A DNA stretch of 64,000 bases from a phage (GCA_019338205.1 GCA_019338205.1_4761.1); one strand, 5' to 3'; positions 25,177 to 26,134 are shown, numbered from the stretch's first letter. A program made the numbers and translations. The notes: generated from the letters alone by a model not told the origin.

Positions 25177-25767
25177 ATGTTAAAAGTTCTAAAAGCGATA
25201 GTATTGAGTCTGTCACTAGCCGTTGGTGCTACACACGCATCGACTAGCGCACCGATCAAAAAAGCGCCGATAGACAACTTTACAGCACACCAACTAGATA
25301 ATTTACATTTCGCCTATCAATACGGCGAGCAATTCGAGAAAAGCGGTAAGTTGAAAAAGTACCATCCGAATATTCGCTATAACGGAAAGGGTTTAGGTCA
25401 CATCCTGGCGGGTATCGCATGGCAAGAATCAAGCGCGGGTGCAAACTTAGCACCAAAGAAAAATCATCATGCTTATGGATTATTTCAAAATTACCTTAAA
25501 ACGGTGAAAGCGAAAAATGCAAAGCGCGGTGTTAAAATGAGTGATCGCCAGACTATCAACTTTATCATGAATCGCGAGGTTTCTGCATTCTACGCGATGG
25601 ATGAGTTAGCATACTGGCTGGATGTTCGAAACGGTAATATCCGACTCGCGCTAGCTTCTTACAATGCAGGGTGGAACTATAAAGCCGGGTTAGGTTATGC
25701 TGATGACGTACTAAAAAAGGCTAACCATCTAAAGAGTAAAGGCATTCTTAAGACTAAACGCTATTGA
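25177..25767 (+). CDS. secreted lytic transglycosylase-like protein (SLT domain, signal peptide)
   Basis: N-terminal signal peptide (LSLAVGATHA); AGIAWQESS catalytic-Glu motif, GLFQ and YNAG motifs. Confidence 0.6.
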   Translation: MLKVLKAIVLSLSLAVGATHASTSAPIKKAPIDNFTAHQLDNLHFAYQYGEQFEKSGKLKKYHPNIRYNGKGLGHILAGIAWQESSAGANLAPKKNHHAYGLFQNYLKTVKAKNAKRGVKMSDRQTINFIMNREVSAFYAMDELAYWLDVRNGNIRLALASYNAGWNYKAGLGYADDVLKKANHLKSKGILKTKRY

Positions 25768-25774
25768 GGAATAT

Positions 25775-26134
25775 ATGAAAAAGTTGACAATAATTGCTAT
25801 GATTGCTATGATGTTCTCGGCTGGTGCGCTTGCTAGTAATGAGCGCCCTTATCCAAAGTTTGAATACAAAGGATTTGAGATCAACAAAAAGATCATTAAA
25901 ACTTTCTGTGATGATGATAACATGTGTAGTGATTTTATCGCGCTCGAACTTGATGAAGCATACAAACAAGGTCGAGACGAAAAACGAAAAAATCGAGCAT
26001 GGGATCTGAGTATTGCCAGCTTTGCTAAAACAAAACGCAACCTGTGTGATACTGCCCCTGATAAGCAATTATGCTTTGCTTATCGCGACACACTGTTAAG
26101 CCGTTTTATGGCTGGGTTGTCTTCCCGTGACTAA
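25775..26134 (+). CDS. periplasmic Cys-containing protein, possibly RI-like lysis-inhibition factor
   Basis: signal peptide ending ALAS; segment CSDFIALE resembles T4 RI CSSDFECIE; position near tk as for T4 rI. Confidence 0.35.
   Translation: MKKLTIIAMIAMMFSAGALASNERPYPKFEYKGFEINKKIIKTFCDDDNMCSDFIALELDEAYKQGRDEKRKNRAWDLSIASFAKTKRNLCDTAPDKQLCFAYRDTLLSRFMAGLSSRD

Follow-up and report, generated by a model that had tools for sequence, protein, structure and literature searches.

The interval 25177-26134 of the window (the whole 64,000-nucleotide stretch of phage DNA that was analysed, GCA_019338205.1) very probably represents the genes vs.1 and vs of a T4-type coliphage of the RB49 kind, encoding a predicted exported SLT-type protein, Vs.1, and a protein unrelated to the RI antiholin, Vs, with lysis inhibition served by a separate rI gene. 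The two ORFs are the already-catalogued early genes vs.1 and vs. The first-pass annotation had read the interval as a secreted lytic transglycosylase followed by an RI-like periplasmic protein; the muralytic half of that reading is right but already published (PMC1524935), and the RI half is wrong.

The vs.1-vs locus in Krischvirus

The genes and signals of the region considered in the current analysis are as follows.

25114-25142, plus strand: early promoter-like site of the sigma-70 type, TTGACT and TATTAT spaced by 17 nt, lying 35 nt 5' of vs.1, with 10/12 positions matching
25166-25170, plus strand: Shine-Dalgarno sequence AGGAG, read from the sequence, 6 nt 5' of the vs.1 ATG
25177-25767, plus strand: vs.1, 196 aa, predicted exported SLT/GH23-like lytic transglycosylase homologue (phrog_600, 1e-59; Pfam SLT, 8.1e-6)
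25775-26134, plus strand: vs, 119 aa, orthologue of T4 Vs, the 'valyl-tRNA synthetase modifier' (phrog_1256, 1.8e-33)
25754-26068, minus strand: antisense ORF inside vs, treated as spurious
26150-26605, plus strand: tk.4 (macrodomain), the next gene 3' of vs (Pfam Macro, 1.3e-6; phrog_335, 1.1e-61)
27954-28256, plus strand: rI (antiholin; Pfam Antiholin, 3e-23; phrog_1246 'lysis inhibition', 2.7e-25), named rI in the JSE annotation

A megablast search with positions 24600-26700 retrieved 59 phage records, nearly all of them from Krischvirus coliphages (RB49, JSE, Phi1, GEC-3S). The best matches listed for this 2.1-kb region are Krischvirus genomes with DNA identities of 98.7-99.1%, and the window is itself a Krischvirus (RB49/JSE/Phi1-like T4-type coliphage) about 99% identical to them. 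These genomes annotate regB, vs.1, vs and tk.4 at the homologous place, vs.1 being named in JSE and Phi1. The gene order in JSE is regB, vs.1, vs, tk.4, three small ORFs, tk, rI and rI.-1, and a matching order (regB-vs.1-vs-tk.4...tk-rI.1-rI) is found in T4. The ORFs at 25177-25767 and 25775-26134 are assigned to vs.1 and vs, respectively, because of the JSE annotation and the T4 gene order, and the PHROG assignments agree. In T4, tk.4 has been named adfM, an anti-DarTG2 factor (10.1101/2025.11.20.689424). The rI gene lies 1.8 kb downstream of the vs.1-vs interval.

The ATG of vs is situated 7 nt past the stop codon of vs.1, and its Shine-Dalgarno sequence (GAGG) overlaps that stop codon. Transcription of the two genes, which precede tk.4/adfM on the same strand, is probably early and driven by a sigma-70-type promoter just 3' of regB. 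The promoter scan as a whole performed at chance level (15 sites found, 13.5 expected); in GEC-3S the annotation places a promoter, including its -35 and -10 signals, at the homologous position (816-844, with the CDS at 879). A terminator-like hairpin at 26099-26113 has been set aside, as the scan that produced it did not rise above chance.

Searches with the Vs family HMM have identified vs directly after vs.1 in T4, JSE, Edwardsiella phage PEi20 and Acinetobacter phage Minot. One ORF and an annotated terminator come between the two genes in Citrobacter phage CfP1, and no vs was detected by the HMM beside vs.1 in Aeromonas phages Aes012 and AS-sw and Salmonella phages Matapan and BPS15Q2. On the basis of this survey of vs.1 neighbours, Vs.1 is the widespread partner and Vs an addition in some T4-type lineages only. 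Vs.1-like proteins are encoded in 2086 phage records, including Straboviridae, Ackermannviridae and Felixounavirus, and searches with two Vs types gave 304 records at E<=1e-5 and 796 at E<=1e-3.

The SLT domain of Vs.1 and the predicted export signals of both proteins

The SLT-type motifs (AWQESS, GLFQ, YNAG) that the first-pass annotation had noted in the ORF starting at 25177 are borne out by the present analysis, the motifs falling on invariant alignment columns and the Pfam SLT match lying above its cut-off; the signal peptide noted with them is predicted by a rule-based test. The features within the two coding regions are the following.

25177-25239, plus strand: predicted Sec signal peptide of Vs.1, aa 1-21, cleavage near THA/STS, rule-based
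25402-25677, plus strand: SLT core of Vs.1, aa 76-167, with GLFQ at aa 101-104 and YNAG at aa 162-165
25426-25428, plus strand: codon of the putative catalytic Glu84 of Vs.1, inside the SLT core
25775-25834, plus strand: predicted Sec signal peptide of Vs, aa 1-20, cleavage near ALA/SNE, rule-based

Family 1 lytic transglycosylases are characterised by the pattern ES...GLxQ...YNxG. The corresponding motifs of Vs.1 are IAWQESS (aa 80-86), YGLFQN (100-105) and SYNAGW (161-166), and the Pfam SLT profile (PF01464) matches aa 76-167 with 25.8 bits against a gathering cut-off of 21.3 (E 8.1e-6). The same profile is matched individually by 23 of 24 Vs.1 homologues at E<=0.01, the best at 1.3e-7. In the alignment of these 24 sequences the invariant residues are E84, S86, G101, F103, Q104, Y162, A164, G165 and Y174, with N163 close to invariant. 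The assignment of E84 as the catalytic residue is by motif order, not by residue-level structural superposition.

The AlphaFold model of Vs.1 is all-helical (pLDDT 84.1, pTM 0.78). The top 20 matches of this model in a Foldseek search of the PDB are lytic transglycosylases of the Slt, MltD and LtgA types and a GH23 chitinase, with probabilities of 0.95-1.0, although the matches are modest (E of about 1e-2, TM 0.35-0.52). The Vs.1 family profile found no PDB sequence at E<=1 and a search with Vs.1 itself gave no useful match, and on this ground Vs.1 is regarded as a divergent SLT member; taken over Vs, Vs.1 and both family profiles, the PDB sequence searches returned chance matches only (E>=0.12). 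NCBIfam holds no family for Vs.1 or Vs. Profile, motifs and predicted fold together show Vs.1, at the level of sequence and model, to be a member of the SLT/GH23 family. Some of the GenBank homologues are named 'SLT domain-containing' or 'lytic transglycosylase domain-containing', and the SLT similarity of vs.1 has been described in six T4-like phages by Nolan et al. 2006, where earlier PSI-BLAST matches of the T4 protein are cited (PMC1524935).

Export signals were sought by a rule-based test with three requirements: K or R close to the start, a hydrophobic core of 10 residues free of charge, and a small -3/-1 site. The opening residues of the Vs.1 ORF are MLKVLKAIVLSLSLAVGATHASTS; the signal segment reads MLKVLKAIVLSLSLAVGATHA, with STS following the predicted cleavage site, and has K residues, a hydrophobic core of 13 uncharged residues and small residues at -3/-1. 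The Vs ORF opens with MKKLTIIAMIAMMFSAGALASNE, its signal segment being MKKLTIIAMIAMMFSAGALA followed by SNE. The second ORF had been described at first pass as a signal-peptide protein, and it does look like a small exported protein by this test. Among the 92 window ORFs that reach 100 aa only 4 satisfy the rules, the products of vs.1 and vs both being among them; of the homologues, 23/24 do so for Vs.1, 18/19 for Vs and 11/11 for RI. The sole failing entry of the Vs.1 set, like that of the Vs set, is apparently truncated at the N-terminus. Two Vs homologues have a lipobox-like site instead (P0034, LSGC; P0038, LLAC).

The signal segment of Vs.1 varies in sequence and is uniformly hydrophobic across the homologues of Straboviridae, Ackermannviridae and Felixounavirus. 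A signal-like N-terminus is kept throughout four phage lineages, in the Vs.1 proteins of Kanagawavirus, Tulanevirus, Hadassahvirus, Pseudotevenvirus, Kuttervirus (Ackermannviridae), Felixounavirus and Ceceduovirus, and in the AlphaFold model the segment has low pLDDT and stands apart from the domain. Because the h-region is short (about 13 residues) and the small -3/-1 site is clear, a cleavable signal seems more likely for Vs.1 than a signal-anchor-release (SAR) segment.

These features suggest that Vs.1 is exported to the periplasm by a Sec-type signal, would be cleaved near Ala21 and would fold as a single basic SLT/GH23 domain of about 20 kDa. As expected from its family membership, Glu84 would act as the single acid/base catalyst, and MurNAc-GlcNAc bonds would be cut non-hydrolytically to give 1,6-anhydro-MurNAc ends. 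Lysis by T4 requires the e lysozyme and the t holin. Since T4 lysis depends on e and t and vs.1 is dispensable in T4, the likely effect of Vs.1 would be a limited local remodelling of the wall rather than bulk lysis. An active muralytic enzyme that is exported early should be hazardous, and for this reason Vs.1 may be weak, regulated or even inactive.

Vs, the RI antiholin and the roles considered for the pair

The profile match to phrog_1256 ('valyl tRNA synthetase modifier', 1.8e-33), the similarity to T4 Vs and the place between vs.1 and tk.4 identify the ORF at 25775-26134, on sequence grounds, as the vs orthologue. BLASTP aligns it to T4 Vs at E 4e-8 with 27% identity, the signal peptide and all four Cys being in register, and the Vs family HMM finds T4 Vs at 2.9e-28. 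The Pfam family PF26829 is precomputed on the 97%-identical cluster representative of Vs (P0001). HMMER against 1.8 billion representative proteins gave only 16 Vs relatives. C45, C51, C91 and C100 are invariant in the family alignment and all lie in the mature part. The AlphaFold model has a four-helix domain with pLDDT of about 90 over aa 40-119; a BFVD search with it returned Vs proteins only, and the fold has no resemblance to known lysozyme or transglycosylase inhibitors. Vs would thus be a small, exported four-helix protein, probably with two disulfides.

The first-pass annotation had likened the segment CSDFIALE of Vs to CSSDFECIE of T4 RI. The likeness of the strings exists, as Vs contains MCSDFIALELD (aa 50-60) and T4 RI does contain CSSDFECIE, but the string is conserved in neither family and no homology accompanies it: the RI of the window reads CMDSRQC, and other Vs proteins have CVD, CIN or CTT. 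The shared string is also out of register, its start coinciding with the second Cys of the C-x5-C pair in the case of Vs and with the first in T4 RI. The Smith-Waterman score of the window Vs with T4 RI is 35 against 24.2 +/- 4.4 for shuffled sequences, 56/2000 shuffles scoring as high, while pairs from the same phage stay at background (639/2000 for the window Vs and RI, 502/2000 for T4 Vs and T4 RI) and the positive controls gave 0/2000. Alignment to T4 rI and its neighbours, which had been proposed as a check on the likeness, argues against it: BLASTP of Vs with T4 RI has an E value of 25, no alignment is obtained with the RI of the window, and the real rI lies at 27954-28256, its product aligning to T4 RI with both Cys conserved. 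The Pfam Antiholin profile (PF24205) matches neither Vs at E<=1 nor the 19 members of its family at E<=10; hhalign of the Vs and RI families gives a probability of 0.8% over nine columns, within the signal peptide; and no similarity of the Vs fold to the periplasmic domain of RI was detected. The string match is real, has no statistical meaning and is due to chance.

It had been further proposed that a periplasmic muralytic enzyme is paired here with an RI-like antiholin or lysis-inhibition factor as a lysis-control or superinfection module. The predicted export of both proteins, the CS(S)DF string and Cys-x5-Cys pair common to the window Vs and T4 RI, and the marginally high Smith-Waterman score of that one pair speak for such a module. 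Against it stand the negative results from BLASTP, the Antiholin profile (0/19 Vs members) and hhalign, the displaced and unconserved string, the background scores of same-phage pairs and the presence of a real rI in the phage, which together rule out Vs as a relative of RI; moreover, in the T4 HIDEN-SEQ comparison of LB with M9, rI, rIII and sp show no joint change with vs and vs.1. With Vs not RI-like and the phage having its own rI, the module is left without specific support and must be considered most improbable; at the level of homology it is already refuted. In the reading preferred here, it is the separate rI at 27954-28256 that provides this phage with lysis inhibition.

[quoted passage not shown] Both vs and vs.1 of T4 are classed as 'Non-essential' by HIDEN-SEQ, vs being the most depleted gene in M9-glucose, a result confirmed by deletion, which impairs plaque formation specifically in minimal medium (10.1101/2025.11.20.689424). 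The values given in Data S8 of the same study (10.1101/2025.11.20.689424) are as follows.

vs: mean reads 26.6 in LB and 5.0 in M9, log2FC -2.19, adjusted p 0.00000 (below the rounding limit)
vs.1: mean reads 22.6 in LB and 11.9 in M9, log2FC -0.87, p 0.0055, adjusted p 0.155

The LB read means of the T4 neighbours are 179 for regB, 290 for tk.4 and 652 for vs.3 (Data S8, 10.1101/2025.11.20.689424), and those of vs and vs.1 are about 7- to 25-fold below them. The shared depletion fits a common function and the polarity of vs.1 insertions on a coupled vs alike.

The role assigned to Vs by its name, an action in the cytoplasm on host ValRS, with an N-terminus that is no functional export signal or exports only a fraction of the protein and a vs.1 adjacency that is inherited synteny, is considered possible though on the unlikely side. 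It agrees with the T4 reports of ligase binding (cited in PMC8076793) and with a deletion defect specific to minimal medium, where aminoacylation could be limiting. However, the n-region, h-region and small -3/-1 site are kept in all 18 full-length members despite sequence drift, the two members with lipobox-like sites and the four invariant Cys point the same way, and the original T4 sequence record X04567 lists vs only as 'ORF 60.9', with no paper found in the literature searched that ties the purified ValRS factor to the vs ORF. Judged from the sequence, the export signature, with its signal and four invariant Cys, would fit poorly with the reported cytoplasmic role. The literature search likewise found no functional study of vs.1 and no localisation study of Vs.

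The same features have been considered for a functional periplasmic pair, in which Vs modulates, inhibits or targets the transglycosylase or both serve one shared envelope process, the label 'ValRS modifier' being incomplete or misassigned. In Krischvirus, T4, PEi20 and Minot the two genes lie side by side or overlap, apparently with translational coupling, export signals are predicted on both products, the four invariant Cys of Vs are typical of extracytoplasmic proteins, vs and vs.1 are both low in LB and lower still in M9 in the T4 data, and full-length His-tagged T4 Vs produced in E. coli is insoluble (PMC8076793). Nevertheless vs.1 insertions are expected to be polar on a coupled vs and polarity alone can explain the shared depletion; Vs.1 is found in 2086 records against 304 and 796 in the searches with two Vs types, and in Aes012, Matapan, BPS15Q2 and AS-sw it has no Vs beside it; an ORF and an annotated terminator separate the genes in CfP1; the T4-type gene order is conserved anyway; and the fold of Vs is unlike those of known lysozyme and transglycosylase inhibitors. 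Such a pairing is therefore thought improbable. Its more specific form also carries little probability: the Vs family would comprise a Sec-exported, disulfide-bonded periplasmic protein acting together with the co-translated Vs.1 in some envelope process of importance in minimal medium, and the ValRS label, now sixty years old, would be incomplete or placed on an ORF assignment that was never verified. It is also rather improbable that Vs.1 is a non-catalytic, peptidoglycan-binding protein of SLT fold. Its divergence, with no sequence match in the PDB and family-specific HHAYG and FQN residues, and an early expression that does not kill the cell would suit such a protein, but the catalytic Glu, Ser86, GLxQ and YNxG are invariant in the 24 homologues, the pattern expected under selection for catalysis.

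Significance and comparison with known systems

Both genes are ordinary and already annotated in near-identical genomes, and the SLT similarity was published in 2006 at the latest (PMC1524935). SLT proteins of the Vs.1 type with predicted export are very widespread in large virulent phages of Gram-negative hosts, and no experimentally assigned role for them was found in the literature searched. The consistent export signature of the Vs family accords poorly with the cytoplasmic function given for it in textbooks, and the T4 transposon data make the point cheaply testable. This signature and the possible functional link of Vs to Vs.1 retain a mild interest.

Vs is orthologous to T4 Vs (NP_049724; PF26829, PHROG 1256) and occupies the same place between vs.1 and tk.4; the identity of the two proteins is low, and ValRS binding has been reported for the T4 protein only. 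With the T4 RI antiholin (PF24205) Vs shares a small size, predicted export, a helical character, a Cys-x5-Cys pair and a location in the same early region, whereas no relationship in sequence, profile or fold has been detected, the RI orthologue being the separate gene at 27954-28256.

Vs.1 corresponds to T4 vs.1 (NP_049725) and its orthologues in JSE, Phi1 and RB49 (PHROG 600), which have the same place between regB and vs. Its length class, signal peptide and SLT motifs are like those of T4 vs.1, which the vs.1 HMM finds at 2.2e-76; the linker after the signal peptide (STSAPIKKAPID) is slightly longer than in the T4 protein, and otherwise nothing material differs.

With Slt70/Slt and MltD (family 1, GH23) Vs.1 shares the motif order, an all-helical goose-lysozyme-like fold and a predicted Sec signal. 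The specialised enzymes of secretion systems (VirB1, IpgF, IagB type) are small proteins made up of a signal peptide and an SLT domain, and Vs.1 resembles them in being a single domain of about 20 kDa. Unlike the GH23 enzymes, Vs.1 is very divergent in sequence, with a family-specific N-terminal helix and the HHAYG/FQN residues, and its gene is early, non-virion, outside the lysis cassette and carried by virulent phages.

A phage protein with lytic-transglycosylase motifs, Tgl of Kayvirus, is secreted via host transport and lytic when expressed, according to the report describing it (PMC7150955). It belongs to a different family (IsaA/SceD-like) and acts in a Gram-positive host, and is likened to Vs.1 by description. 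Tgl is, on the same account, an exported phage transglycosylase, in contrast to the T4 endolysin, which is cytoplasmic and released by the holin.

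Predicted export signals in the Vs family

In two homologues of Vs, P0034 and P0038, the signal sequence ends in lipobox-like sites (LSGC, LLAC). These sites suggest that some of the Vs homologues are lipoproteins, and they also provide independent support for the predicted export of the family.

The Acinetobacter phage Minot encodes five genes in a row, namely vs.1, vs, an ORF of 141 residues, an ORF of 99 residues and rI (locus L005, 2501-4368). The products of all five have N-termini that are signal-peptide-like or transmembrane-like. Based on these N-terminal features, it is suggested that, in some of the T4-type phages, the early region around vs.1-rI groups together genes for proteins that are targeted to the envelope.

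Transposon insertions in vs and vs.1 of T4

The mean insertion reads of vs and vs.1 in T4 are about 7- to 25-fold below those of the flanking non-essential genes already in LB, and growth in M9 lowers both further, by -2.19 log2 for vs and -0.87 log2 for vs.1 (HIDEN-SEQ Data S8, 10.1101/2025.11.20.689424). This scarcity of insertions may reflect either polarity or a function shared by the two genes.

Genes flanking vs.1 and vs

Small ORFs and named genes around vs.1 and vs in the window
23835-24029, 24026-24271 and 24329-24664, +, three tandem small ORFs between nrdC.11 and regB
26150-26605, +, tk.4, encoding a macrodomain protein (Pfam Macro 1.3e-6; phrog_335 1.1e-61)
26595-26789, 26762-27004 and 26997-27290, +, three small ORFs between tk.4 and tk
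27954-28256, +, rI, the true antiholin gene (Antiholin 3e-23)
28243-28641, +, rI.-1 (phrog_858, 'starvation-inducible transcriptional regulator'), overlapping the 3' end of rI by 14 nt

The T4 orthologue of tk.4, recently named adfM, is an anti-DarTG2 factor (preprint 10.1101/2025.11.20.689424), and the same counter-defence is therefore probably carried by the window phage. Two of the small ORFs that follow tk.4 are Cys-rich with zinc-ribbon-like CxxC pairs (phrog_4864, phrog_2306), and the one of 97 residues has two hydrophobic segments (phrog_16027).

The tandem ORFs preceding regB are mutual paralogues, for which phrog_6261 and phrog_15978 give cross-hits, and their common motifs include GYIKDD.GY and C.HL/C.YL. 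Further upstream, vs.6 and nrdC.11 of phage JSE are separated by the gene of a homing endonuclease (locus L001, 1968-2498), whereas the window is devoid of this gene, with vs.6 ending at 23028 and nrdC.11 starting at 23115.
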